Source: Octopus vulgaris
Lineage: Eukaryota
DNA: 64,000 nucleotides
Assembly (NCBI GenBank): GCA_951406725.2
Contig: OX597841.1
Coordinates: 5,518,001-5,582,000, forward strand
Reading direction: 5' to 3'
Shown: positions 2,758 through 59,535 of the stretch, one piece after another
How positions within the stretch are numbered: the stretch's first letter is position 1
Layout of the letters: each line of letters starts with the position of its first letter
Program-made: the position numbers and the translations under genes
The notes under the pieces: model-generated
The model's database searches: none
What the model was told of the DNA's origin: nothing
What the model saw: only the letters and a program-made list of their open reading frames with translations

Positions 2758-3166
2758 AGAAAGTATCGACCCCGAAAGGATGAAAGGCAAAGTCAACCTC
2801 GGCGGAAATTGAACTCAGAACGTAACGGCAGACGAAATACGGCTTCGCATTTCGAAATACGGCTTCGCATTTCGCCCGGCGCGCTAATGTTTCTGCCAGC
2901 TCGCAGCGTTAAGATAGCAAAATATATCTGACATCGTTTCAATAGCACTGAGAGGAAAAGGGGCTCAAACAGGGGTCAGCTTCTATCGCACTGCCATTTG
3001 AACTCAGAACGTAACGGCAGACGAAATACGGCTTTGCATTTCGCCCGGCGCGCTAATGTTTCTGCCAGCTCGCAGCGTTAAGATAGCAAAATATATCTGA
3101 CATCGTTTCAATAGCACTGAGAGGAAAAGGGGCTCAAACAGGGGTCAGCTTCTATCGCACTGCCAT
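2758..3166 (-). mobile_element. SINE-B 5' halves with tandem duplication including flank
   Basis: Reverse complement of the tRNA-like SINE-B head. Segment ~2810-2996 repeats at ~2997-3166 together with unique flanking sequence. Confidence 0.8.
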
Positions 3167-10040: not shown

Positions 10041-10629
10041 ACATACATACACACACACACACATATATATATCAATTAAAAAAAAAACACCTATCAATTC
10101 AATAATGAAAAATTAATTTACACAATCTAGAAAATTGCATATTATAGAAAGATTAAATATAAGATAAAACATATAACGATGATTAAGTAAAGTGCAAAAT
10201 AATAAATAAAACGTAAATGCATGGGCGACTGCTGGTCTTCCATAAACAACCTTGCTTGGACTTGTACCTGAGAGGGTAACTTTCTAGGTGCAATCATTCG
10301 GTCAGTCATGACCGAAGGGGGTCTCAGCATCTATGGCTTACTACTACAATGAGAACGTGTACACACTTACTCAACAAGAAATTAACTCTCTTAACCTCGT
10401 ATGCTTTTCCATTTACTAATTGTACAGATCAACCCATTGTGGTTTTGACTACATACTAAGTTACGATGAATAAATTTTTGTTTACAATTTCGATCAATGT
10501 TCTTCTGTCATCTTACTCATCTGCAACATCAACACCCGTTGCAATCGCTAACTGCCGACTCCAACAATCACCACAAATTACCGTTACAATTTTACAATTG
10601 GTAATCATTGACTCCACCTAACAATACCA

Positions 10630-11317
10630 ATTTCTTTATTACCCTCAAGGGGCTAAACATAGAGGGGACTGACAAACGGGTTAAGTCGATTACATCGACC
10701 CCAGTGCGAAACTGGTACTTAATTTATGCTATTGAAACGATGTAATATATATTTTGCCATCTTAAGGTGGAGAGCTGGTAGAAAGGTTAGCACATCGGGC
10801 GAAATCCTTAGCGGTATTTCGTCTGCCGTTACGTTGTGAGTTCAAATTCCGCCGAATTCGACTTTACCTTTCATCCTTTCGGGGTCGATAAATTAAGTCC
10901 CAGTTACGCACGGGAGTCGATGTAATCGACTTAATACCTATGTCTGTCCTTGTTTGTCCCCTCTGTGTTTAGCCCCTTGTGGGTAATAAAGAAATAGGTA
11001 TTTTGTCTGCCGTTACGTTCTGAATTCAAATTCCGCCGAATTCGACTTTACCTTTCATCCTTTCGGGGTCGATAAATTAAGTACCAGTTACGCACTGGAG
11101 TCGATGTAATCGACTTAATACCTATGTCTGTCCTTGTTTGTCCCTTCTATGTTTAGCCCCTTGTGGGTAATAAAGAAATAGGTACTTAATTTATCGACCC
11201 CGAAAGGATGAAAGGTAAAGTCGACCTCGGCGGAATTTTAACTCAGAACGTAACGGCAGACGAAATACGGCTACGCATTTCACCCGGCGTGCTAACGATT
11301 CTGCCAGCTCGCCGCCT
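10630..11317. mobile_element. SINE-B composite: plus-strand dimer nested in a minus-strand copy
   Basis: Duplicated GGTACTTAATTTAT at 10714 and 11181 brackets the inner dimer plus ~36 bp of captured flank. Confidence 0.8.
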
Positions 11318-11639
11318 CCCAGATGGCAAAATATATCTGACATCGTTTCAATTGCACCTCCCCCCCATATGTAAAAAAACCCACTTTCTTGAAATGTATC
11401 CGGTACTTATACCGAAGTTACGCCACTATTAATATATGGCATAGAAAATTCCCCAAAATAAAATAGTCATAAAGCCATGGGGTACTTAAATCGGAACTCC
11501 ATCGATTAACTGATTTATTATTTAACTCAGACAGATTATGGGGTACCACATTGTAGTTTGCCTGGAGGAAAAAATATTTGTGACATCTTTTCAAAAGGAA
11601 TGAGAGAAAAAGAACTGAAGCAAGAGTGAGCGGCTGGAA

Positions 11640-19019: not shown

Positions 19020-20037
19020 TATAGATCAGAAAGATAGGGTTCGAGTAGACAGGGGTGCTAGAAAGAAATTAGATAACATTATATGTAATGATACCAGTGG
19101 TACCTGCCTTAAATATAGAAACAAAGACTGGAATAGGATACAAAGAACTTGTGACAAAGCAAATAGGGCAAACACATGGTATAAAACTGACCAATATCAA
19201 GGAGTGATGTTTGTAGAGGCCACAGCCCATGGAGAACTAGCTCGTAGATTTAGAAAATCCCTGAAGGAGACCAAATTCAACATTAAGATTGTTGAAAAAC
19301 CGGGGAACTCCGTCAGATCACAACTATTATTTCTTTACTACCCACAAGGGGCTGAACACAGAGGGAACAAACAAGGACAGACAGACGGATTAAGTCGATT
19401 ACATCGACCCCAGTGCACAACTGGTAATTAATTTATCTTTAAGGCGGCGAGCTGGCAGAAACGTTAGCACGCTGGGCAAAATGCGTAGCCGTATTTCGTC
19501 TGCCGTTACGTTCTGAGTTCAAATTCCGCCGAGGTCGACTTTGCCTTTCATCCTTTCGGGGTCGATAAATTAAGTACCAGTTACACACTGGGGTGGATGT
19601 AATCGACTTAATCTGTTTGTCCCCTCTGTGTTTAGCCCCTTGTGGGTAGTAAAGAAATAGGTACTTAATTTATCAACCCCGAAAGGATGAAAGGCAAAGT
19701 CGACCTCAGATCACAACTATGTAGGACGCACCCCTTTCAGAATACCATATGCACCAATGATAAATGCATGGTATGTAGGGTTAGCCCTGGCATTAACTGT
19801 GGAACTCGAAATGTAGTTTACAGCATAAGATGCATAGAAGGTGCTTGTAGAGACATGAACATGACGCACATAGGGGAGACATCTAGGAGCATTGCGGAAC
19901 AACCAAATGAACATCGGAGACAATATGACGACAAAAAGCAGTCCTCCATACTCTACCAACATGGAGGCAACTTGGGTCAACTTGACATCCGCATCTTATC
20001 CAAGCACTCAGACAAATATGGAAGTATGTCCTTATAA
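19020..20037 (+). pseudogene. Penelope-like element ORF relic (C-terminal region with GIY-YIG endonuclease)
   Basis: Removing the SINE-B insert (15-bp TSD TCAGATCACAACTAT at 19313 and 19706) joins both ORFs in frame. Cys-rich linker then VVYSIRC..C....HIGETSR......EH, the PLE GIY-YIG signature. Confidence 0.8.
19328..19705. mobile_element. SINE-B composite: plus copy nested in a minus copy
   Basis: Inner copy ~19441-19660 bracketed by GGTA(A/C)TTAATTTATC. Confidence 0.85.
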
Positions 20038-23776: not shown

Positions 23777-25084
23777 GTCTTCAAGAAAAAAATCAATTTC
23801 TCAAGTTTTTGCATTATTTTTCTCCTCAAATCAAAATATTTCTATATATTTCTTGTTGATTCCGTTCCTATTATTTATTCTTTGCCATTTTTTCAGCTAC
23901 GGTATTACTGTCCAACGTTACCTTTATCTAAAAACTTATGAAAATTTACCCCAAGTTTAATTAAAGCACACAAACTCACTTTGTATACACTCCAGATTAC
24001 GGCAGAAAGTTTGCTAATAATCTCAGTTCAGAGCAAAATGTCATTGGATTTTACAATGAATTCATAGAAACGGTGCTCTTCCATATAACATTTACATTCA
24101 GTCTTTAAATGATGGTACGCTTTGAAGGTGCATCTTCTGTTAGTCCAATATCATCTATGATTCTGAAACAATGAAGAAACATCAGATTAAAATACAGAGG
24201 CTAATTGAAAATCAGAGATTTAATAGTGGAAAATTTATACCATTTCTATAGAGATTAATCGCAGGAACAAATATTTACTTTAACGACTGAACATTTTAAT
24301 TTACTAAAAATTTACGTAACAGAAGCATACACATTTGTAAACTAGACCTACACCTTCACATTGTGCTAAAATATTATATATATTAAACTATAAAATAGTG
24401 GACGATAACACTCCGTCTCTCCAAAATTATAAGTGGACATGCTTATTCAGCCCCAGGTCAGCACAAGTGCTCTTTATGTATATATATATATAGGAGCAAA
24501 ACGTCCCCCATCCTATGGACGGTGCTGAGTTGTCAAACATTTCATCCTAACGTTCACAAAGCAACATGTCTGACCGTCCCATAGGCCTCCCCTTTGAGAA
24601 ACAGATTTAACCTAAATTTGAGACACCTGCAAAAGAGGAGATAAAGATAGACCCTTTTTTTTTTCTTAGTGAAAATCGTGCGGGTGTTAATCTGTAATTT
24701 TACCGACGTTTTTTCTATTCCAAAGAAAAACGATTTTATTCACACAAATACGCAACCGAATAGTTGAAAGTACCAGTAATGATAAGGCTGTTGACTGGGA
24801 GATCAGAAAGAAAATTACAAAAGACTGAGTCTAGTGTAATACAAAATATTTCTCAAACTAAACCATACAACAAACTAACGTTGCAACGATGGACAGGCAA
24901 CAAAATAGGCTTCGTAGATACAATAATTTCATTATATTATATATTATAAATAGCAGCCAAATCACGTACAAAGTAGGCAAATTTCATGTATAAAATGTAG
25001 GACAGACACAAAGAATCAATTCGTCAAAAACAAATGACTACAATATTAAAAGACGAAATATTTTCATTGTTTAATTATACTTAC

Positions 25085-25407: not shown

Positions 25408-26005
25408 TGTTACGTTCTGAGTTCAAATTCTACCGAAATCGACTTTGCCTTTCATCCTTTCGGGGTCGATAACTTAAGTACCTATTTCTTTATTACCCAC
25501 AAGGGGTTGAACACAGAGGGGACAAACAAGGACAGACATAGGTATTAAGTCGATTATATATCGACACCAGTGCGTAACTGGTACTTAATTTATCGACCCC
25601 GAAAGGATGAAAGGCAAAGTCGACCTCGGTGGAATTTGAACTCACAACGTAACGGCAGACGAAATACCTATTTCTTTATGACCCACAAGGGGCTAAACAT
25701 AGAGGGGACAAACATGGACAGACATAGGTATTAAGTCGATTACATCGCCCTCAGTGCGTAACTGGTACTTAATTTATCGACCCCGAAAGGATGAAAGGCA
25801 AAGTCGACCTCGGTGGAATTTGAACTCACAACGTAACGGCAGACGAAATACCGCTAAGCATTTCGCCCGGCGTGCGAACGTTTCTGCTAGCTCGCCGATA
25901 AATTAAGTACCAGTTACGCACTGGAGTCGATGTGATCGACTTAATACCTTTGTCTGTCCTTGTTTGTCCCCTCTATGTTTAGCCTTTCGTGGGCAATAAA
26001 GATAT
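25408..26005. mobile_element. SINE-B composite: minus-strand dimer nested in a plus copy
   Basis: Duplicated GATAA(C/A)TTAAGTACC at 25468 and 25897. Confidence 0.8.
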
Positions 26006-26329
26006 AAGATATATTTTGCCATCAGGCAAACGACAATGTGTTACCCCATATGTTACCCCATAATCTGTCGAAGTTAAATAATAAATAAGTTCTTCAGCGG
26101 AATTCTGATTTAAGTACCCAATTTAATGCTTTATGATTATAGTATTACTGGAATTTTCACGAAATTTTCTATGGCAAAAAAAAAAAAGCCTACCCCAATA
26201 AATATTAAAATTTTCACTCTTTCTCGAATTTCATTTTCAAAATCAGTGTCTAAAATGCGGACAGTCCGAATCTTATCACCCGTTTCTGTTTATAATTGAA
26301 AAATAATTTTTAAAAATCCAAATTTTTTT

Positions 26330-30043: not shown

Positions 30044-31966
30044 TCACTGATATGGGTTCTCACCTGTGTGACTACGCCTGTGTGTCAACAAATTACTACT
30101 TTGAGAGAATGACTTCTTACAAATATCACACTTATATGGCTTCTTTCCTGTATGAATATACTTGTGTGTTTTTAAACTACTAACTTGAGAGAATGATTTA
30201 CCACAAATATCACACTGGTATGGCTTCTCTCCTGTATGAATACGTTTATGAGCAGTCAAACTTCCATTCTGAGAGAAAGATTTATTGCAGATGTCACACT
30301 GGTATGGCTTCTCTCCTGTATGAATACGTTTGTGTGTAGTTAACGCACCACTTCCAGCGAATGATTTACCACAGATATTACAGTGATATGGTTTCTCTCC
30401 TGTGTGAATACGTTTGTGTGTAGTTAACGCACCACTTACAGCGAATGATTTACCACAGATATTACAGTGATATGGTTTCTCTCCTGTATGAATACGTTTG
30501 TGTACTCTTAAATCATGATGTTGAGAAAATGATCTGCTACGAATATCACATTTATATGGTTTCTCTCCTGAATGAATACGTTTATGTGATGTTAAGCTAC
30601 AACGTACGGAGAATGATTTACCACAGATATCACACCGATATGGTTTCTCTCCTGTATGAATACGTTTATGCACCGCTAAGTTACTACTTAAAGAGAATGA
30701 TTTACCACAGATATCACACCGATATGGCTTCTCACCTGTGTGACTACGCTTGTGTGTCATTACACTACTACTGTTAAAAAATGACTTCTTACAAATATCA
30801 CACTGAAACGGCTTCTTTCCTGTATGAATACGCTTGTGTGCACTTAAACTACTAATTTGAGAGAATGACTTCTTACAAATATCACACTGGTATGGCTTCT
30901 CTCCTGTATGAATACGTTTGTGTATACTTAATGCACTACTTGCAGTGAATGATTTACCACAGATAATACACTGATATGGCTTCTCTCCTGTATGAATATA
31001 TTTATGTACTTTTAAGGCATTATTTCCACAGAATGATTTACCACAGATATCACAGTTATATGGCTTCTCTCTTGTGTAAATACATTTATGTACTTTTAAG
31101 GAATTACTTCCACAGAATGATTTACCACAGATATTACAGTGATATGGTTTCTCTCCTGTATGAATACATTTGTGTTTTCGTAAGTTAGAACCTGCAGTGA
31201 ATGCTTTACCACAGATATTACACTGATATGGTTTTTCTCCTGTATGTAGACGCTTGTGTATAGTGAAGCATTCAAGTCGAGAAAATGATTTACTACAGAT
31301 ATCACACTGATATGGCTTCTCTCCTGTATGAATCAGTTTGTGTTTAGTTAAAGAATTATTTCTGGTGAAAGATATACCACAAATGTCACAATGAAATGGT
31401 TTCTCTCCTGTATGAATACGTTTATGTACAGTTAGGCTTCCATTCGCAGAGAATGATTTACCACAGATATTACAGTGATATGGCTTCTCACCTGTATGTA
31501 TACGTTGGTGAGATTTAAATGGAGTGATGCCAGAGTATGATTTACCACAGATATTACAGCAATACGGATTCTCTCCTGTATGAATTCGCTTGTGGAAATA
31601 TAAAGCACTCCCTCCAGAGAATGATTTACCACAGATATCACAATGATATGGCTTCTCTCCTGTATGAGTACGTCTGTGTGTAGTTAGGTTTCCATTCTGA
31701 GAGAAGGATTTGCCACAGATATCACATCTATATGGCTTCTCTCCTGTATGAACTCGACGGTGAGATGTTAAGTTAGCACGTATAGAGAATGATTTCCCAC
31801 AGATATTGCAGCAATATTGTTTCTTCCCTGTATGATTACGCCTATGTTTAATCAGGTTACGTTTCTGGGAGAACAGCTTTTCACAGCTATTAAATTCACT
31901 TGATGGTTTTCCTGTATTTTTAGGCATGTCTTTTCTCAATCTCTCGAGTTTTTGACGTTTTTGCAT
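30044..31966 (-). CDS. Poly-C2H2 zinc-finger protein ZNF4 (~21 fingers, two degenerate)
   Basis: Acceptor at ~32001 puts the ORF-track ATG (32020) in the intron; likely ATG is 31966 or 31927 (MPKNTGKP). Ends at a short deletion creating TGA. Putative intron 32001-41804. Confidence 0.88.
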
Positions 31967-32219
31967 TATTTTTCTTCTCAAAAAAAAAAAACAAAATATT
32001 CTGAAATAACGAAGAAACATCAGTTTAAAATACAGAGGCTAATTGAAAATCAGAGATTTAATAGCGGAATATTTATAACATTTCTATAGAGATTAATTGC
32101 ACGAACAAATATTTACTTTAACGACTGAACATTTTAATTTACTAAAATTTACGTAACAGAAGCATACACATTTGTAAACTAGAGCTACACCTTCACATTG
32201 TGCTAAAATATTATATATA

Positions 32220-32733: not shown

Positions 32734-33010
32734 TTAAACTATAAAATAGTAGACGATAACACTCCGTCTCTCCAAAATTATAATTGGACATGGTTATTCA
32801 GCCCCAGGTCAGCACAAGTGCTTTTTATGTGGTGCAAGTACAAGTGTTCTTTATGTGGCACCAGCATTTGTGGCATAACACTCTGTCATGTATTACACAT
32901 CCAGTGGATCATACTAGCTTCATTTCTTTCAAGCCTACGCATGTCCTCAGCATTCCTGGCCCATGTTTCACTGCCATGTAGCATGTCAGTTCACACACAT
33001 GCATCATACA

Positions 33011-40399: not shown

Positions 40400-40573
40400 A
40401 AAAAAAAAAAAATGCATTTTTCAAGGAGAGGTGTGAAACTGCTCGTTTTCTGCTTGGAAATTTACAGATTTTACATACAGATATGAAGCAAGTAAGAACA
40501 TATATGCAAGGTTTTTTTGGGTTTTTTTTTTCGTCTAAGTTTAAAATGCGACATTGTTTCAAACACATAAATA

Positions 40574-40723
40574 TAAGGTTGTCCCAAAAGTTCGTAGAAA
40601 GTCTTGGAAAATAATGGTCTTTATTTTGAGGAATAATTTTTGTTATTTTTGTTGTTTTTGTTAGTTCTTGGCGAGTAAAAATTCAATTTTCGCAAGTGTT
40701 TACGAACTTTTGGGACAACCTAA
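40574..40723. mobile_element. Tc1/mariner-type MITE
   Basis: TA|TAAGGTTGTCCCAAAAGTTCGTA...TACGAACTTTTGGGACAACCTAA|TA. Confidence 0.8.
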
Positions 40724-40900
40724 TAACACATAAAAAGCAGAAGCAGACGCACAAAATATTTCTCAAACTAAATCACACAACGAACTAACAAGGCAACAAC
40801 GGACAGTTAACAAAGTAGGTTTCATAGCAAGAAAAGCAGCCAAATCACGCACATATCAGACATTCTTCATCAATAAAAGTTATGTGACAAAGAATCGATG

Positions 40901-41729
40901 CAAAGACGGCGAGCTGGCAGAATCGTTAGCTTAGAATATTTACCTTAACAGCAGAACATTTTAATTTACTAATATTTACGTAACAGAATTCTGTGCGCGG
41001 AATACACATTTGTGAACTATAGCTACACCTTCACATTGTCTTAAGATTATATATAAACTACAAAATAGTAGACAATAAGCTTCACGCTCCAGAAATATAT
41101 ACTTGGACATAGTTAATCAGCCCCAGAAGGTGTTGAGCTGGCAGAGTGGTTAGCACGCCGGGCGAAATGCTTAGCCGTATTTCGTCTGCCGTTACGTTCT
41201 GAGTTCAAATTCCGCCGAGGTCGACTTTGCCTTTCATCCTTTCGGGGTCGATAAATTAAGTACCAGTTACGCACTGAGGTCGATATAATCGACTTAATCC
41301 ATTTGTCTGTCCTTGTTTGTCCCCTCTGTGTTTAGCCCCTTGTTGGTAGTAAAGAAATAGGTATTTCGTCTGCCGTTATGTTCTGAGTTCAGATTCCGCC
41401 GAGGTCGACTTTGCCTTTCATCCTTTCGGGGTCGATAAATTAAGTACCAGTTACGCACTGAGGTCGATGTAATCGACTTAATCCGTTTATCTGTCCTTGT
41501 TTGTCCCCTCTATGTTTAGCCCCTTGTTGGTAGTAAAGAAATAGGTATTTCGTCTGCCGTTATGTTCTGAGTTCAGATTCCGCCGAGGTCGACTTTGCCT
41601 TTCATCCTTTCGGGGTCGATTAAATAAGCACCAGTTACGCACTGGGGTTAATGTAATCGACTTAATCCCTTTGTCTGTCCTTGTTTGTCCCCTCTGTATT
41701 TAGCCCCTTGTGGGCAGTAAAGAAATAAG
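40901..41729 (+). mobile_element. Chimeric SINE-B trimer carrying ~190 bp of ZNF intron sequence
   Basis: 12-bp TSD AAAGAATCGATG at 40889 and 41730. 40937-41127 matches 52231-52420. Three 184-bp bodies. Confidence 0.85.
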
Positions 41730-41804
41730 AAAGAATCGATGTGTCAAAAACGAAAGACATGAACAGCACTAAAAGAAGAAATATTTTCATTGTTGAATAC
41801 TTAC

Positions 41805-42025: not shown

Positions 42026-42054
42026 TACGATTAAACGGTAGGTTTAATGCACTC

Positions 42055-45000
42055 TGTTACTTGTTTCAGTCATTTGACTGCGGCCATGCTGGAGCACCGC
42101 CGTTAGTCGAGCAAATCGACCCCGGGACTTATTCTTTGTAAGCCCAGTACTTATTCTATCGGTCTCTTTTACTTGTTTCAGTCATTTGACTGCAGCCATG
42201 CTGGAGCACTGCCGTTAGTCGAGCAAATCGACCCCGGGACTTATTCTTTGTAAGCCCAGTACTTATTCTATCGGTCTCTTTTACTTGTTTCAGTCATTTG
42301 ACTGTGGCCATGCTGGAGCACCGCCGTTAGTCGAGCAAATCGACCCCGGGACTTATTCTTTGTAAGCCTAGTACTTATTCTATCGGTCTCTTTTACTTGT
42401 TTCAGTCATTTGACTGCGGCCATGCTGGAGCACCGCCGTTAGTCGAGCAAATCGACCCCGGGACTTATTCTTTGTAAGCCTAGTACTTATTCTATCGGTC
42501 TCTTTTACTTGTTTCAGTCATTTGACTGCGGCCATGCTGGAGCACTGCCGTTAGTCGAGCAAATCGACCCCAGGACCTATTCTTTGTAAGCCTTGTACTT
42601 ATTCTATCGGTCTCTTTTACTTGTTTCAGTCATTTGACTGCGGCCATGCTGGAGCACCGCCGTTAGTCGAGCAAATCGACCCCGGGACTTATTCTTTGTA
42701 AGCCCAGTACTTATTCTATCGGTCTCTTTTATTTGTTTCAGTCATTTGACTGCAGCCATGCTGGAGCACTGCCGTTAGTCGAGCAAATCGACCCCAGGAC
42801 CTATTCTTTGTAAGCCTTGTACTTATTCTATCGGTCTTCTTTTACTTGTTTCAGTCATTTGACTGTGGCCATGCTGGAGCACCGCCGTTAGTCGAGCAAA
42901 TCGACCCCAGGACCTATTCTTTGTAAGCCTTGTACTTATTCTATCGGTCTCTTTTACTTGTTTCAGTCATTTGACTGTGGCCATGCTGGAGCACCGCCGT
43001 TGGTCGAGCAAATCGACCCCAGGACCTATTCTTTGTAAGCCTTGTACTTATTCTATCGGTCTCTTTTACTTGTTTCAGTCATTTGACTGTGGCCATGCTG
43101 GAGCACCGCCGTTAGTCGAGCAAATCGACCCCAGGACCTATTCTTTGTAAGCCTTGTACTTATTCTATCGGTCTCTTTTACTTGTTTCAGTCATTTGACT
43201 GTGGCCATGCTGGAGCACTGCCGTTAGTCGAGCAAATCGACCCCAGGACCTATTCTTTGTAAGCCTTGTACTTATTCTATCGGTCTCTTTTACTTGTTTC
43301 AGTCATTTGACTGTGGCCATGCTGGAGCACCGCCGTTGGTCGAGCAAATCGACCCCAGGACCTATTCTTTGTAAGCCTTGTACTTATTCTATCGGTCTCT
43401 TTTACTTGTTTCAGTCATTTGACTGTGGCCATGCTGGAGCACCGCCGTTAGTCGAGCAAATCGACCCCAGGACTTATTCTTTGTAAGCCTTGTACTTATT
43501 CTATCGGTCTCTTTTACTTGTTTCAGTCATTTGACTGCGGCCATGCTGGAGCACCGCCGTTAGTCGAGCAAATCGACCCCGGGACTTATTCTTTGTAAGC
43601 CTAGTACTTATTCTATCGGTCTCTTTTACTTGTTTCAGTCATTTGACTGCGGCCATGCTGGAGCACCGCCGTTAGTCGAGCAAATCGACCCCGGACTTAT
43701 TCTTTGTAAGCCTAGTACTTATTCTATCGGTCTCTTTTACTTGTTTCAGTCATTTGACTGTGGCCATGCTGGAGCACTGCCGTTAGTCGAGCAAATCGAC
43801 CCCAGGACTTATTCTTTGTAAGCCTTGTACTTATTCTATCGGTCTCTTTTACTTGTTTCAGTCATTTGACTGTGGCCATGCTGGAGCACTGCCGTTAGTC
43901 GAGCAAATCGACCCCAGGACTTATTCTTTGTAAGCCTTGTACTTATTCTATCGGTCTCTTTTACTTGTTTCAGTCATTTGACTGTGGCCATGCTGGAGCA
44001 CTGCCGTTAGTCGAGCAAATCGACCCCAGGACTTATTCTTTGTAAGCCTTGTACTTATTCTATCGGTCTCTTTTACTTGTTTCAGTCATTTGACTGTGGC
44101 CATGCTGGAGCACTGCCGTTAGTCGAGCAAATCGACCCCAGGACCTATTCTTTGTAAGCCTTGTACTTATTCTATCGGTCTCTTTTACTTGTTTCAGTCA
44201 TTTGACTGCAGCCATGCTGGAGCACTGCCGTTAGTCGAGCAAATCGACCCCAGGACTTATTCTTTGTAAGCCTTGTACTTATTCTATCGGTCTCTTTTAC
44301 TTGTTTCAGTCATTTGACTGTGGCCATGCTGGAGCACTGCCGTTAGTCGAGCAAATCGACCCCAGGACCTATTCTTTGTAAGCCTTGTACTTATTCTATC
44401 GGTCTCTTTTACTTGTTTCAGTCATTTGACTGTGGCCATGCTGGAGCACCGCCGTTAGTCGAGCAAATCGACCCCAGGACCTATTCTTTGTAAGCCTTGT
44501 ACTTATTCTATCGGTCTCTTTTACTTGTTTCAGTCATTTGACTGTGGCCATGCTGGAGCACTGCCGTTAGTCGAGCAAATCGACCCCAGGACTTATTCTT
44601 TGTAAGCCCAGTACTTATTCTATCGGTCTCTTTTACTTGTTTCAGTCATTTGACTGTGGCCATGCTGGAGCACCGCCGTTAGTCGAGCAAATCGACCCCA
44701 GGACCTATTCTTTGTAAGCCTTGTACTTATTCTATCGGTCTCTTTTACTTGTTTCAGTCATTTGACTGTGGCCATGCTGGAGCACCGCCGTTAGTCGAGC
44801 AAATCGACCCCAGGACCTATTCTTTGTAAGCCTTGTACTTATTCTATCGGTCTCTTTTACTTGTTTCAGTCATTTGACTGTGGCCATGCTGGAGCACCGC
44901 CGTTAGTCGAGCAAATCGACCCCAGGACCTATTCTTTGTAAGCCTTGTACTTATTCTATCGGTCTCTTTTACTTGTTTCAGTCATTTGACTGTGGCCATG

Positions 45001-46408
45001 CTGGAGCACTGCCGTTAGTCGAGCAAATCGACCCCAGGACTTATTCTTTGTAAGCCTTGTACTTATTCTATCGGTCTCTTTTACTTGTTTCAGTCATTTG
45101 ACTGTGGCCATGCTGGAGCACCGCCGTTAGTCGAGCAAATCGACCCCAGGACTTATTCTTTGTAAGCCCAGTACTTATTCTATCGGTCTCTTTTACTTGT
45201 TTCAGTCATTTGACTGTGGCCATGCTGGAGCACCGCCGTTAGTCGAGCAAATCGACCCCAGGACCTATTCTTTGTAAGCCTTGTACTTATTCTATCGGTC
45301 TCTTTTACTTGTTTCAGTCATTTGACTGTGGCCATGCTGGAGCACCGCCGTTAGTCGAGCAAATCAACCCCAGGACCTATTCTTTGTAAGCCTTGTACTT
45401 ATTCTATCGGTCTCTTTTACTTGTTTCAGTCATTTGACTGTGGCCATGCTGGAGCACCGCCGTTAGTCGAGCAAATCGACCCCAGGACCTATTCTTTGTA
45501 AGCCTTGTACTTATTCTATCGGTCTCTTTTACTTGTTTCAGTCATTTGACTGTGGCCATGCTGGAGCACTGCCGTTAGTCGAGCAAATCGACCCCGGGAC
45601 TTATTCTTTGAAAAGCCCAGTACTTATTCTATCGGTCTCTTTTATTTGTTTCAGTCATTTGACTGTGGCCATGCTGGAGCACCGCCTTTAGTCGAGCAAA
45701 TCGACCCCAGGACCTATTCTTTGTAAGCCTTGTACTTATTCTATCGGTCTCTTTTACTTGTTTCAGTCATTTGACTGTGGCCATGCTGGAGCACCGCCGT
45801 TAGTCGAGCAAATCGACCCCAGGACCTATTCTTTGTAAGCCTAGTACTTATTCTATCGGTCTCTTTTACTTGTTTCAGTCATTTGACTGTGGCCATGCTG
45901 GAGCACCGCCGTTAGTCGAGCAAATCGACCCCAGGACTTATTCTATCGGTCTCTTTTACTTGTTTCAGTCATTTGACTGCGGCCATGCTGGAGCACCGCC
46001 GTTAGTCGAGCAAATCGACCCCAGGACTTATTCTTTGTAAGCCTAGTACTTATTCTATCGGTCTCTTTTACTTGTTTCAGTCATTTGACTGTGGCCATGC
46101 TGGAGCACCGCCGTTAGTCGAGCAAATCGACCCCAGGACCTATTCTTTGTAAGCCTAGTACTTATTCTATCGGTCTCTTTTACTTGTTTCAGTCATTTGA
46201 CTGCGGCCATGCTGGAGCACCGCTGTTAGTCGAGCAAATCGACCCCGGGACTTATTCTTTGTAAGCCTAGTACTTATTATTCTATCGGTCTCTTTTACTT
46301 GTTTCAGTCATTTGACTGCGGCCATGCTGGAGCACCGCATTTCAATCGAGCAAATCGACCCCGGGACCTATTCTTTGTAAGCCCAGTACTTATTCTATCG
46401 GTCTCTTT
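42055..46408 (-). repeat. 112-bp tandem satellite (~39 units) derived from the SINE-A 3' end
   Basis: Period 112 bp (42061 to 42173). The last unit runs directly into the rest of a SINE-A (46409-46675). Confidence 0.97.
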
Positions 46409-46675
46409 TGCCGAACCGATACGTTACGGGGACGTAAACACACCATCATCGGTTGTCAAGCGATGTTGGGGGGACAAACACAGACATACAAACATATATA
46501 TATATATGCATATATACGACGGGCTTCTTTCAGTTTCCGTCTACCAAATCCACTCACAAGGCTTTGGTCAGCCCGAGGCTATAGTAGAAGACACTTGCCC
46601 AAGGTACCACGCAGTGGGACTGAACCCGGAACAATGTAGTTGCTAAGCAAGCTACTTACCTTACAGCCACTCCTC
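46409..46675 (-). mobile_element. SINE-A head and body contiguous with the satellite
   Basis: Reverse complement of the SINE-A head, (TA)n and mid body. Confidence 0.9.
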
Positions 46676-50042: not shown

Positions 50043-51323
50043 CTACACTGTATGAGTGCGTTTGTGTCTTCTTAACTTACTACTTTCACAGAATGATTTA
50101 CCACAAATATCACAACAATAAGGTTTCTCTCCCGTGTGAATACGTTTATGTATTGTTAACGAACTGCTGACAGAGAATGATTTGCTGCAGATATCACATT
50201 CATATGGCTTCTCCCCTGTATGAACACGTTTGTGAGAAATGAGATAACTACATCCAATGAAGGACTCACCACAGATATCACACTGATATGGCTTCTCTCC
50301 TGTATGAATCCGTTTGTGAATGGTTAAGGAAGTATTTCGAGTGAACGATTTACCACAGATATCACACTGATATGGCTTCTCTCCTGTATGAATGCGCTTG
50401 TGTACAGTTAACTCACCACTTTCAGAGAATGATTTATCACAGATGTTACAGTGATATGGCTTCTCTCCTGTATGGACTCGCTTGTGTCTAGTTAAGTAAC
50501 CACCTTGGGAGAATGATTTACCACAGATATCACAGCAATATAGCTTCTCCCCTGTATGAATACGCTTGTGACATATCAAATTAGTAGGTCCAGTGAATGA
50601 TTTACCACAGATATCACAGTGATATGGCTTTTCTCCTGTATGAATTCGTGTGTGTCTAGTCAACGCAGTACAATGAGAGAAGGATTTACCACAGATATCA
50701 CAGCAATACGGCTTCTCTCCTGTATGAATACGCTTGTGAGAATTTAAAGCACTACGTTTAGAGAATGATTTACCGCAAATACTACAGTGATATGGCTTCT
50801 CTCCTGTATGTACAAGTTTATGTGTAGTTAGGGTAGATTTGTGAGAGAATGATTTACCACAGATATTACAGCAATATGGTGTCTCTCCTGTATGAATACG
50901 TTTGTGAGAAATGAGGTAACTACACCTGGAGAAGGAATTACCACAGATATCACACTGATATGGCTTCTCTCCTCTATGAATCCATTTGTGAGAAGTTAAG
51001 TAATGAAGTTGAGAGAATGATTTATCACAAATATCACAGTGATATGGTGTCTCTTCTGTATGAATACGTTTGTGTTTAGTGAGCGTAGATTTCTGAGAGA
51101 ATGATTTATCACAGATATCACAGTTATATGGTTTCTCTCCTGTATGAATACGTTTGTGTGTAGTTAGGTTTCCATTCTGAGAATATGATGCACCACAGAT
51201 ATCACAGTGATATGGTTTCTCTCCTGTATGAATACGCTTATGTTGAATTAGGTTACCATTCTGGGAGAATGACTTTTTACAGATAGTACAGTCATATAAT
51301 GGTTTTGTTGTATCTTTAGGCAT
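50043..51323 (-). CDS. Poly-C2H2 zinc-finger protein ZNF5 (~15 fingers, 426 aa)
   Basis: Starts MPKDTTKP with an intact first finger. TAG in a linker, relic fingers to ~49740. Putative intron 52122-54628. Confidence 0.92.
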
Positions 51324-51350
51324 GTCTTCAGAAAAAAATCAGTTCTTTAA

Positions 51351-51760: not shown

Positions 51761-52419
51761 TTAAGTTTCTGTAATATTTATCTTCTCAAAATAAACTACG
51801 TCTATATTTCAATATATTTGTTGTTTATTCTTTAACAATATTCTTAGCTTCTGTATTTCTGTCCAATGTTACTTTTATCTCAGTCTTATGAAAATTTATC
51901 CAAGTTTAATTAGAGCACAAAACTCATTTGGTATACACTCCAGATTATGATGCAGAAATTTTGCTAATAATCTCAATTCAGAGTAAAATGTCATTGGAAT
52001 TTAACAATGAATTTATAGAAACAGTGCTAGATATCTCCTCCATATAGCATTTTCATTCAGTTTTTAAAAGATGGAAAGTTTTGAAGTTGCATCTTCTGTT
52101 ATCCCAATATCATCTCTTGTTCTGAAATAATGAAGAAACACCAATTTTTAAAATATATATACTACTTAAGAAATAGATTCAACAGTGGGAAAATTTATAA
52201 CATTTCTACAGAGATTAATTGCAGAAACAAACATTTATCTTAACAGCAGAACATTTTAATTTACTAATATTTACGTAACAGAATTTTGTGCGCAGCATAC
52301 ACATTTGTGAACTAGAGCTACACCTTCACATTGTCTTAAGATTATATATAAACTACAAAATAGTAGACAATAAGTTTCTCGCTCCAGAAATATACTTGGA
52401 CATAGTTAATCAGCCCCAG

Positions 52420-52810
52420 AAGGTGTTGAGCTGGCAGAGTGGTTAGCACGCCGGGCGAAATGCTTAGCCATATTTCGTCTGCCGTTACGTTCTGAGTTCA
52501 ACTTTGCCTTTCATCCTTTCGGGGTCGATAAATTAAGTACCAGTTACACACTGAGGTCGATGTAATCGACTTAATCCATTTATCTGTCCTTGTTTGTCCC
52601 CTCTATGTTTAGCCCCTTGTGGGTAATAAAGAAATAGATATTTCATCTGCCGTTACGTTCTGAGTTCAAATTCCGCCGAGGTCAACTTTGCCTTTCATCC
52701 TTTCAGGGTCGATAAATTAAGTACCAGTTACGCATTAATTGACTTAATCCGTCTGTCTGTCCGTGTTTGTCTCCTCTGTGTTTAGCCCCTTGTGGGTAAT
52801 AAAGAAATAG
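52420..52810 (+). mobile_element. SINE-B dimer in ZNF5 intron
   Basis: TSD GTTAATCAGCCCCAG; diagnostic head AAGGTGTTGAGCTGGCAGAGTGGTTAGC. Confidence 0.88.
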
Positions 52811-53330
52811 GTTAATCAGCCCCAGGTCAGCTTTGACTGAGCAAACATGATCAAAGACATTCCATCTAAGAACATCATCATCACCATGACAGAACACATT
52901 TTCCATGTTGGCAAGTGTTGGACGGTTTGACAAGAGACGGCAAGCTGGAGTGGTGCACCATGGTGTAATTTGTTTGTCATGGCATGGTTTCTATGGTTGG
53001 ATGCCCTTCCTAATGCCAGCCACCTTAGATAGTGTACCAGGTGCTTTCCATATGGAACTAGTACAGGTGTCCTTTATGTGACACGGCACAAGTAACTTTT
53101 TTCTTACCTGGCACCAGCATGGGTCGCATAACACATCCTATCTTTCTCTGTAGCATTGTTTATCTACGACCATATTATACAAATAGGCCACAAAGTAGAA
53201 ATAACATACAGAGGAACAAACATGCATGCAAAAACACAGGAACAAAGCACGCACGCACAACCCATTGGCTTTCTTTTCCCAACTGACAATTTACAAGACA
53301 ACATGTGGTCACGGAAATCACCGAATTCAA

Positions 53331-54954: not shown

Positions 54955-55730
54955 TATTTTTTTATTGTCCACAAGGGGCTAAACATAGAGGGGACAAACA
55001 AGGACAGACAAATGGATTAAGTCGATTATATCGACACCAGTGCGAAACTGGTACTTTATTTATCGACCCCGAAAGGATGAAAGGCAAAGTCGACCGCGGC
55101 GGAATTTGAACTCAGAACGTAACGGCAGACGAAATACCTATTTCTTTACTACCCACAAGGGGCTAAACACAGAGGGGACAAACAAGGACAGACAAAGGGA
55201 TTAAGTCGATTACATCGACCCCAGTGCGAAACTGGTACTTTATTTATCAACCCCGAAAGGATGAAAGGCAAAGTCGACCTTGGCGGAATTTGAACTCAGA
55301 ACGTAACGGCAGACGAAATACCTATTTCTTTACTACCCACAAGGGGCTAAACACAGAAGGGACAAACAAGGACAGACAAACGGATTAAGTCGATTACATC
55401 GACCCCAGTGCGAAACTGGTACTTTATTTATTGATCCCGAAAGGATGAAAGGCAAAGTTGACCTCGGCGGAATTTGAACTCAGAACATAACGGCAGACGA
55501 AATACCTATTTCTTTACTACCCACAAGGGGCTAAACACAGAGGGGACAAACAAGGTTAGACAAACGGATTGAGTCGATTATATCGACCTCAGTGCGAAAC
55601 TGGTACTTTATTTATCGACCCCGAAAGGATGAAAGGCAAAGTTGACCTCGGCGGAATTTGAACTCAGAACGTAACGGCAGACGAAATACAGCTAAGCATT
55701 TCGCCCGGCGTGCTAACGGTTCTGCCAGCT
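54955..55730 (-). mobile_element. SINE-B tetramer (one head, four ~185-bp bodies)
   Basis: Junctions GACGAAATAC|CTATTTCTTT occur three times. Confidence 0.9.
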
Positions 55731-56560: not shown

Positions 56561-57099
56561 AGTGAACCTGGTAAAGAATACCAGTCTTTGTAAGGTGTAC
56601 CAGGCTATAGTACTTTCTTCCGTGCTGTATGGAGTGAAATCTGGCCGGTCTATAGGGCTCAAGCAGACAAGTTCCCTACTTATGATGCAGGATTAACCAT
56701 AAGCCGTTTTGTTGCTCTTGGCTGTGCATATTTTCATAAATTTCCTCATAGCTGTATCGGCCCATTGATACTCTTCCTTTCTCATTTCTGTATTCCTTCT
56801 TTCTTTTCTTTGCCTGTTTGATTGATTTGTAAAATTGTTTTTCTTGGAATAAAAAAAGTCTATCTTTTTCTTCATTTGCCATGTTAGACCACTGAACTCT
56901 ACTACAAGTTTTTTTACCCTTTTTTTGATTATTTCCTCTTGTCCATTTCTGTTGAAGAGTATAGGCTCAGAATATGAAAGACTTTTTCATTTTTCCTGAG
57001 TGTCAAACTAATACCTTTGCTTGTTGTTCAAACACATGTCTTTCTCATTTGTGTTTCTATAAATTTCAACTAATACATATTTATTTATACATATAGAAG

Positions 57100-59535
57100 G
57101 CAACTGGACGAGTTAGAAGGCAACCGGACGTTTCTAAGGGACAACCTGCTGAGAGCCACTGACCAGATCTGTGGCTGGTGCAAAGTCCCCTCTTGTCCCA
57201 AGGTAACGTGGTGGTGGAACAATGTTGTAGACAGGACTATTAGAGAAAAGAGACAGGCTTGGAAGGACTGGAAGTATGGTGGTAGCATGGAATTGTATGA
57301 GACTGCCAAACGGGAAGCTAGGAGACAGGTTTATCTAGCCAGAGGGGAAGCAGATAAGAAAAAATTTGCCAATGTTCTGCACCGTGAGGACCAAAGACTG
57401 GAGGTGTTTCGTGTTGCAAGACAGTGTGTGAGAGAGAATTGTGATGTGGTAGGAGAGAAGTGTGTTCGCATGGAAGATGGTTCACTTGCGCTAAATGAGG
57501 ATGCAAAGAGAGAGGTCTGGAGACGCCACTATGAAAGGTTGCTGAATAAAGAAAATGAATGGGATAAAGAGAGTCTACCAAATGTTGACCCAACAGAGGG
57601 ACCAGCTATCCGAGTTGATAGTTCCTTGGTAGTTAAGGCAATTAGAAGCATGAAGACAGGGAAAGCCCCAGGCCTATCAGGAATCACTGCAGAGATGCTC
57701 AAAATATCTGGTAGTGTCGGCTATAGCCTAGTCACCCGTATAGTTAATCAGGTGATACACGAAGGAGTCATACCCAATGACTGGTGTAGCAGCATAATAG
57801 TCAACTGCTACAAAGGTAAAGGTGATGCCCTAGATACAAATAATTACAGAGGTATCAAGCTGTTGGATCAGGTAATGAAGGTTACGGAGAGGGTCATAGC
57901 CCAACTAATTAGAGAGAGAGTTAGTCTAGATGAGATGCAGTTTGGGTTCATGCCAGGGAAAAGTACCACTGATGCTATATTCCTGGTGAGGCAGCTGCAG
58001 GAGAAATACCTAGCCAAAGATAAGCCCCTGTACCTGCTTTTTGTTGATATGGAGAAAGCCTTCGACAGGGTCCCCTGATCCCTTATCTGGTGGTCAATGA
58101 GGAAACTAGGGATAGATGAATGGTTGATAGCTTCCGTTACCTAGGTGATCAAGTCAGTAGCAGGGGTGAGTGTGCTGAAAGTGTAAATGCTAGAGTAAGA
58201 ATAGCTTGGGCAAAGTTCAGAGAGCTCTTACCTCTGCTGGTGACAAAAGGCCTCTCGCTCAGAGTAAAAGGCAGACTGTATGACACATGTGTACGAACAG
58301 CCATGCTACATGGCAGTGAAACATGGGCCGTGACTGCTGAGGATATGCGTAAGCTCGCAAGAAATGAAGCCAGTATGCTCGGATGGATGTGTAATGTCAG
58401 TGTTCATACTCGACAAAGTGTAAGTACCTTGAAAGAAAAGCTGGACCTAAGAAGCATCAGATGTGGTGTGCAAGAGAGACGTTTGTGCTGGTATGGTCAT
58501 GTGGTGAGAATGGATGAAGATAGTTGTGTGAAAAAGTGCCACACCCTAGCAGTTGAGGGAACCTGTGGAAGAGGCAGACCCAGGAAAACCTGGGACGAAG
58601 TGGTGAAGCACGACCTTCGAACTTTAGGACTCACTGAGGAGATGACTAGAGACCGAGACCTATAGAAGTATGCTGTGCGTGAGAAGACTTGGCAGGACTA
58701 GTGAGACCATTACCCGTGGCCTCTACCTGGGATGTAGCCAGTCGACTTATGCATACCTTTCCTTCTTGGGACACAAAACTCCACTTGTGAAGACCCGTTG
58801 AGGCAAGTGGAAAACGGAAATCAAAATCAAAATCAAATGAAATGAAATGAAATCAGTAATCGAAGTCGATCAACATCAGTGGAAATTGCAGCTGCGATAC
58901 CAGTGCCGGTGACATATAAGCGTACCATCCGATAGTGGACGTGGCCAGTGCCGACCCTACTGGCCTCCGTGCTGGTGGGATGTAAAAGGCACCATCCGAT
59001 CATGGCCGTTGCCAGCCTCGCCTGGCCCCTGTGCCGGTGGCACGTAAAAAGCACCACCCGACCGTGTCTGTTGCCAGCGCTGCCCCGTCTGACCTCCGTG
59101 CTGGTGGCACGTAAAAAGCACCATCCGATCGTGGCCGTTGCCAGCCTCACCTGGTCCCCGTGCCAGTGGCACGTCAAAAGCACCACCCGACCGTGTCCGT
59201 TGCCAGCGCTGCCCCGACTGGCCTCTGTGCTGGTGGAGCGTAAAAAGCACCATCCGATCGTGGCCATTGCCGGCCTTGCCTGGCCCCCGTGCCGGCGGCA
59301 CGAAAAAGCACCATCCATCCGTGGCTGTTTGCCAGCCCCGTCTGGCACCTGTGCGGGTGGCACGTAAAAAGCACCCACTACACTCACAGGGTGGTTGGCG
59401 TTAGGAAGGGCATCCAGCCGTAGAAACACTGCCAGATCAGACTGGGCCTGGTGCAGCCTTCTGGCTTCCCAGACCCCAGTTGAACCATCCAACCCATGCT
59501 AGCATGGAAAGTGGACACTAAATGATGATGATGAT
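57100..59535 (+). mobile_element. RTE-clade LINE, 5'-truncated and internally deleted
   Basis: ORF 57287-58078 has KAPG, NYRGIKLL, QFGFMPGKST and FVDMEKAFDRVP. It jumps to the C-terminus (58120-58665) without the YADD region. Repetitive 3' UTR and (ATG)n tail. Confidence 0.92.

Follow-up and report, generated by a model that had tools for sequence, protein, structure and literature searches.

How did about 190 bp of an intron of one zinc-finger gene come to lie inside a SINE within the predicted intron of another? The question is raised by an insert at positions 40889-41741 (hereafter D41) of the 64,000-nt stretch of DNA that we analysed (the window), part of which resembles the sequence upstream of a second SINE at 52420-52810 (S52), our candidate source. 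The window contains six long C2H2 zinc-finger frames, two of which are confirmed by Pfam, together with many SINE copies, and its paralogous ZNF units are ~75-80% alike; gene layout and repeat sequences suggest an octopus ZNF cluster. The label 'SINE-B' for the SINE concerned was taken from a preliminary description of the window. D41 is made up as follows.

40889-40900, plus strand: left TSD, 12 bp, possibly 13 bp with 40901 if CpG decay hit the right copy.
40903-40930, plus strand: canonical SINE head stub of 28 nt, which stops at the base of the head hairpin; probably the head of the original host SINE.
40931-40934, plus strand: filler of 4 bases that repeats the adjacent head motif; presumably templated filler or a micro-deletion scar.
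40935-41126, plus strand: captured ZNF5 intron block, 192 bp, the last part of which (41112-41126) is the left TSD of the donor SINE.
41127-41176, plus strand: atypical SINE head of the donor type, the same as 52420-52469 at 50/50 positions.
41177-41544, plus strand: units 1 and 2, 184 bp each, mosaic, in part like donor unit 1 and in part like unit 3.
41545-41729, plus strand: terminal unit 3, 11% from the donor terminal unit with no common derived change; probably host-derived.
41730-41741, plus strand: right TSD.

All of these segments are co-oriented and lie within one TSD. Two occurrences of the 12-mer, at 40889 and 41730, are all that the 64,000 nt contain, and the preliminary description was right to place stub, block and trimer within a single 12-bp duplication; at least 12 matching bases were found in 0.38% of ~20,000 random 30-nt pairs, drawn from the same repeat-rich window. 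The stub starts 2 bases from the left TSD, the position expected of an original head, and is canonical rather than donor-type (the family majority letter at position 40906 was taken from read data). The 28-nt head and the 4-nt filler thus separate the left TSD from the captured flank, which does not begin at the TSD. The filler repeats the neighbouring head motif and is too short to point to any one pathway. A T4 run lies inside the block at 40959, and the trimer comprises 3.0 copies of 184 bp.

The gene setting of the insert is given by three further features.

30044-32038, minus strand: C2H2 array coding frame of ZNF4, the putative recipient gene.
41797-41804, minus strand: GT splice-donor motif in the ZNF4 unit, conserved in five units; the exon structure is predicted.
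50043-51338, minus strand: C2H2 array coding frame of ZNF5, the donor gene.

The predicted first intron of ZNF4 would therefore contain D41 ~63 bp from its 5′ end, antisense to the gene. When its flanks are joined, they give one continuous alignment to each of the three paralogous ZNF units that were aligned (24.8k, 54.4k, and 11.7k), and the empty site seen earlier in the paralog near 25010 is therefore real. The region of the 12-mer is recognisable once in two of these three paralogs and in a fourth unit at 3.8k, which was inspected by eye and not aligned; it is mostly deleted in the 54.4k unit. Among the circumstances that, according to the preliminary description, would undo its reading was a TSD match that was pre-existing sequence, with the block explained by simple segmental duplication. 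Both parts of this are ruled out, the former because the 12-mer is found once per paralog in those that keep it, and the latter, at the scale of a whole unit, because the flanks of D41 are only 75.9% and 75.7% identical to the ZNF5 unit, against 95.8% in the block. ZNF4 retains its own copy of the block, 81% alike, at 32108-32219 and 32735-32807. The intron-block copies of ZNF4 and ZNF1 (32219/32735 and 5044/5530) are each broken by a ~500-bp insert, in both cases at one and the same position in an AT repeat. A 112-bp satellite derived from the end of another SINE family occupies 42052-46409 with ~39 copies; it lies to the promoter side of the ZNF4 unit, and a motif of three other units, which we take to be NRF1-like, was not found there.

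The candidate source comprises the following.

52230-52419, plus strand: donor block in the ZNF5 intron, including the left TSD of the donor SINE (52405-52419).
52420-52810, plus strand: donor SINE dimer S52, from which deletions have removed 16 bp of unit 1 and 11 bp of unit 2.
52811-52825, plus strand: right TSD of the donor SINE.

Alignment of 40935-41126 with 52230-52419 gave 182 matches, 8 substitutions, and one 2-bp indel. The match with 52231-52420 that had been called nearly identical is real, at an identity of 95.8% and with these refined coordinates. The 15-mer TSD of the donor SINE is present at 41112, 52405, and 52811; the source 5′ TSD thus lies within the captured flank, and the new TSD of D41 surrounds the 5′ flank of the source together with the element. 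The same unusual head had been reported for the trimer and the 52420 copy, and the letters of this second head variant are indeed confined to D41 and S52 among the 11 heads found in the window. Over the first 121 bp, the D41 block and the 52k intron group together against four other paralogs (99/98 support), and both contain an 11-bp insertion that is absent from these four, which bears out the earlier pairing of source and daughter. S52 is the nearest same-orientation copy to D41 among the 11 other SINE copies in the window, at a distance of 11.5 kb, a proximity that counts as a likelihood ratio and not as proof, because a scan of the window notices only nearby pairs.

Further information on the source, and on the age of the junction, came from sequencing reads. 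Contigs from four of the 24 runs listed were compared over 40560-41340, an interval that spans the left junction and ends before 41729/41730; joints from ~40930 to 41150-41200 were left out, as they come from other copies of the SINE family. A 220-bp contig in both X10 (organism B) and X9 (organism C) covers 40752-40967, and hence the TSD, the stub, and 33 bases of the block, with 11 other letters and 4 gaps. Since contigs bridge stub and block with ~5% other letters, the junction is real and predates the divergence of organisms A, B, and C. In X2 (organism A, from a study other than that of the top-ranked run X1), exact contigs cover 40752-40928 and 40965-41079, neither of which extends over the stub/block junction. 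The same run contains an S52-type contig and a third copy. The earlier caution that a close paralog of the ZNF5 intron might be involved was well placed, since this third, more distant copy is visible in the reads; it was rejected as the source, however, with 12 differences from D41 over 40965-41113 as against 6 for the 52k copy. S52 is thus the nearest source among the sequences seen, and a close paralog also exists. Reads over 40965-41145 point to one or more additional paralogs of the ZNF5 intron outside the window, with the same 11-bp insertion; in X10 and X9 (organisms B and C), contigs with the third-copy markers join the atypical head seen in D41 and S52. A fourth type, more distant, appears over this interval as well. 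At several sites where D41 differs from S52, a D41-like contig in X10 keeps the S52 letters, and the variant table suggests that part of the 4% block divergence arose after the species split. Neither a pre-capture allele (a SINE without the block) nor an empty allele was seen among the contigs listed for the four runs, in which SINE-family copies dominate. Run X13 has no cover at 40857-40883 and is uninformative at the site, organism D likewise gives no information there, and no single contig among those listed spans the whole insert.

The SINE itself consists of a head and one to four tandem 184-bp units (54955-55730, 41177-41729, 10813-11184, and 25479-25852). Units within one copy often have private changes in common, which points to multimers that arose by local duplication or from multimeric masters. 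A TSD of at least 7 bp was found near the ends of eight of the 11 copies examined; two of these eight enclose a foreign 5′ flank, matched nearby in both cases. The second case is the SINE at 10764(+), which has a 14-bp TSD 36 bp upstream of its head. Its 36-bp flank (10728-10763, within 10714-10763) matches the flank of the promoter-side SINE of ZNF1 (3080-3117) at 33/36 positions, and also that of the inverted SINE in which it sits (11321-11359); this host SINE, at 11317(-), likewise has a near-copy of the flank at a non-native position. The two non-native copies begin within a few bases of each other, as would be expected of a fixed start upstream, but equally of a local template switch over the inverted repeat. 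Three inverted SINE-in-SINE insertions (10623-11317, 19328-19710, and 25409-26006) share the same internal target sequence, an apparent target preference, and have TSDs of 9-14 bp. LINE-type reverse transcriptase frames are present at 57074-58665, with Pfam RVT_1 on 57074-58078, and this LINE is a possible partner of the SINE. Searches with Rfam returned two matches only, both at chance level (E about 4-5), and ARAGORN 0 genes. The atypical-head pattern had 0 matches in metagenome contigs, and the SINE core pattern 0 in the genome and viral contigs searched; the core pattern was found at 121 metagenome loci (L001-L121), with alignment only over the 40-50 bp core and none over the block. The 25-bp core of the SINE unit (41231-41255) is exact in an estimated 7500 metagenome stretches and is likely to be a domain common across a SINE superfamily.

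How far into the SINE does the resemblance to S52 extend? Across the block, head, and unit 1, D41 differs from S52 at 15/408 positions (3.7%), whereas the terminal units differ at 19/173 (11%; Fisher p=0.0015 against block, head, and unit 1, and p=0.024 like-for-like against unit 1 alone). Among 87 pairs of unrelated units in the window (median 8.1%), a divergence of 11% ranks near the 95th percentile, and no derived state common to the terminal units of D41 and S52 was found. Column 176 is G in all three D41 units and A in both donor units, the G form being the one that predominates in the family's loose-end consensus from the reads. Decay is evident in the donor terminal unit (10 derived substitutions, one deletion), which may itself have been overwritten. 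The middle of D41 is less simple. The divergence from donor unit 1 is ~4% for D41 unit 1 and likewise for unit 2; over columns 36-165, unit 2 is identical to donor unit 1 at 113/115 positions (2 differences), and the A at column 132 is found only in D41 unit 2 and donor unit 1 among 15 units. Donor-like sequence in unit 2 therefore reaches deeper into the body than would be expected of a single clean switch. Unit 1 has four derived states in common with the unrelated 55k copy and three with the donor; the two likenesses are equivalent, so that no particular switch point is indicated. Later duplication or conversion of units must, on these comparisons, be assumed for the mosaic units 1 and 2. 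D41 is thus composed of a donor-type head beside the copied flank, a mosaic middle, and a non-donor terminal unit distally; a donor-type 5′ side with a non-donor 3′ end and a non-donor stub at the left TSD makes it a hybrid.

We consider it most likely that D41 is a SINE trimer whose head was interrupted by a copy of the ZNF5 intron during repair that used S52 as a DNA template. A canonical SINE would first have retrotransposed into the predicted first intron of ZNF4, making the 12-bp TSD; the TSD and the empty site are there to be seen, and the place of this event at the head of the series is our reconstruction. A break or stalled fork in the 5′ part of that SINE may then have released a DNA end that paired with the 52420 copy through SINE homology. 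Leftward synthesis would have run through the donor head, the donor left TSD, and ~190 bp of unique flank, all of which are present in D41. The new strand was probably end-joined to the remaining 28 nt of the host head, leaving the 4-nt filler that now marks the junction. Unit-level duplication or conversion would finally have mixed units 1 and 2, where the mosaic is plain and its order in time is conjectural.

We infer that the SINE came first and the block later. If an ordinary SINE, with the stub as its head, had inserted earlier, the TSD would be explained equally well, and it may thus say nothing about the date of the capture. If SINE homology initiated the event, the position of the block next to the donor head follows automatically, the choice of the nearest same-orientation donor is explained, and no antisense RNA is needed. 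Retrotransposed copies disperse, and in a genome that we take to be ~2.7 Gb, the prior for one landing within 11.5 kb would by our estimate be near 1e-5. A T4 run stops Pol III read-through, and the one in the block would do so for transcription from the stub; a composite Pol III unit that propagates itself was rejected on this account. Conversion between Alu elements is reported to be elevated within ~10 kb (PMC8230782 and PMC6598467, citing Aleshin & Zhi 2010), DDSA is described as the repair of a break in a repeat from an ectopic copy, with duplication of the ectopic site (PMC3276153), and background on template switching and end joining is given in PMC7615360 and PMC4888836.

The preliminary description had proposed that SINE activity moves ZNF-unit DNA between paralogs in the cluster, and had preferred an RNA route, by 5′ transduction or a switch of the reverse transcriptase. 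The movement is associated with a SINE, as proposed. The RNA route as first choice is not supported. Of the explanations that compete with repair from S52, the foremost, although we think it unlikely, is a single retrotransposition with two template changes, in which the LINE reverse transcriptase passed from SINE RNA to ZNF5-intron RNA, copied 190 nt of flank, and returned, or was joined by ligation, to a 5′ fragment of SINE. The RNA could have been an antisense transcript, or sense pre-mRNA used in second-strand synthesis, and TSD and chimera would have formed together. Such an event gives the same product, the non-donor 3′ unit included, and TSD-flanked L1 chimeras with U6, tRNA halves, and Alu are described, in the accessible part of bioRxiv 10.1101/2025.02.02.635956, as arising by template switch, RNA ligation, and twin priming. 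The 28-nt stub, which ends at the hairpin foot, is near the size of a tRNA fragment; the G at 40934 may derive from a cap; and a second TSD-enclosed flank exists at 10728-10763. However, two switches, a local antisense Pol II RNA, and reinsertion 11.5 kb from the source are all required, and the nearest same-orientation source is not predicted by the mechanism itself, unless nascent local RNA was used. Moreover, repetition of the head motif fully explains the filler, and the tRNA-half chimeras in the same source, as far as it is available, are mostly antisense, whereas the parts of D41 are all co-oriented. A more general form of the idea, in which DNA of the gene adjoining the insertion site is repeatedly acquired by the SINE with its LINE partner, through a switch onto nascent ZNF RNA at integration, seems distinctly doubtful to us. 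If true, intron and promoter-side sequence would be shuffled among ZNF paralogs by way of RNA made close to the locus.

In its plain form, 5′ transduction would proceed, as in SVA, from a plus-strand Pol II start upstream of the 52420 SINE; it predicts the absence of a stub and a match to the donor up to the 3′ end; neither holds, and transduction is therefore not supported. To save it, one must suppose that the stub was acquired on integration and that conversion overwrote the 3′ unit in either donor or daughter, a combination that we judge very improbable. The block does contain the source 5′ TSD, which in the accessible text of PMC12593883 is a criterion for SVA source elements. Units 1 and 2 each lie close to donor unit 1, and within this SINE family the 10764(+) copy shows a TSD-enclosed 36-bp 5′ flank and no stub, as true transduction would leave. 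Yet transduction leaves the stub of D41 unexplained, the two terminal units are not related, and D41 and donor units disagree throughout at column 176; the donor is a dimer and D41 a trimer, the source is close by, and no TATA-like motif was found at the expected distance, the nearest being 76 bp upstream. In all, SVA-type transduction in its plain form fails two of the four testable features.

Tandem ZNF clusters grow by unequal exchange, and unequal crossover between two same-orientation SINEs could have duplicated 11.5 kb, of which a later deletion of ~11.3 kb left 190 bp. Exactly the arrangement of D41 would result, including a hybrid SINE with the head of the donor and the tail of the host; nevertheless, two events are needed, with a breakpoint that fell by chance within the first 30 nt of the host SINE, and we give this course of events only a slight chance. 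An assembly chimera might be suspected in so repeat-dense a locus, where no listed contig covers the entire insert, but is extremely improbable given that X10 and X9 bridge the stub/block junction, that block and donor disagree at 8 sites, with the D41 version exact in X2, and that the TSD and the empty-site paralogs are coherent. Integration of a circle, as for SVA/lcr16a, was rejected, as it predicts reciprocal chimeras and both donor TSDs, which were not seen.

Returning to repair from S52, D41 is a new and small instance of a known process, the repeat-mediated capture of sequence between ZNF paralogs. Neither an exon nor a promoter was seen in the moved DNA, which lies mid-intron, so a functional effect is unlikely. 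The value of the locus is rather that it provides a case, resolved to its breakpoints, of SINE-mediated DNA exchange between paralogs in a C2H2-ZNF cluster of the cephalopod type, and that it cautions against taking a TSD-enclosed flank alone as proof of RNA transduction. According to the available part of a 2026 review (PMC12988792), breakpoint-level tests are lacking for the role claimed for SINEs in the restructuring of the octopus genome, and composites of this kind, counted in a census, would therefore provide a direct one. Titles and the openings of abstracts, with few subscription papers covered, yielded no literature on the D41 locus or on the capture of SINE flanks in cephalopod ZNF clusters, and nothing relevant was found under the old octopus SINE names.

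How D41 relates to systems already described can be judged from the accessible portions of the papers concerned. The U6/L1, tRNA-half/L1, and Alu/L1 chimeras (bioRxiv 10.1101/2025.02.02.635956) likewise have a short 5′ piece of small RNA fused within one TSD, but consist of two segments, whereas D41 has three, the middle one being unique intron from 11.5 kb away. SVA 5′ transduction (PMC12593883) resembles D41 in that the 5′ flank and TSD of the source lie inside new TSDs; there, however, no head precedes the flank and the body matches the source, and both features fail in D41. The circle-mediated duplicative transposition of SVA (PMC9132208) has in common with D41 movement at the DNA level, chimeric elements, and source TSDs inside recipient TSDs, yet leaves two reciprocal full chimeras and both source TSDs at the inner junctions, where D41 has one 28-nt stub and the donor left TSD only. 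Non-allelic gene conversion between Alu elements (PMC8230782, PMC6598467) similarly gives a mosaic SINE with intact TSDs and a donor ~10 kb away; unlike it, the D41 tract goes past the homology and adds unique flank. DDSA (Fiston-Lavier 2007 as described in PMC3276153) and one-sided invasion or template switching (PMC4888836) differ from D41 in that only ~240 bp of its tract are demonstrably donor-derived, that both of its original TSDs are kept, and that its pathway is deduced from the product. They nonetheless share with the route proposed for D41 the break within a repeat, the ectopic invasion, the copied flank, the repeat at one end of the duplicate, and perhaps the micro-scar at the other. 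They also predict a hybrid repeat, of donor type beside the copied flank and of recipient type distally, and D41 has a donor-type head and a non-donor terminal unit. As DDSA or one-sided repair expects, the same repeat is present in the same orientation at donor and recipient at one breakpoint of D41.
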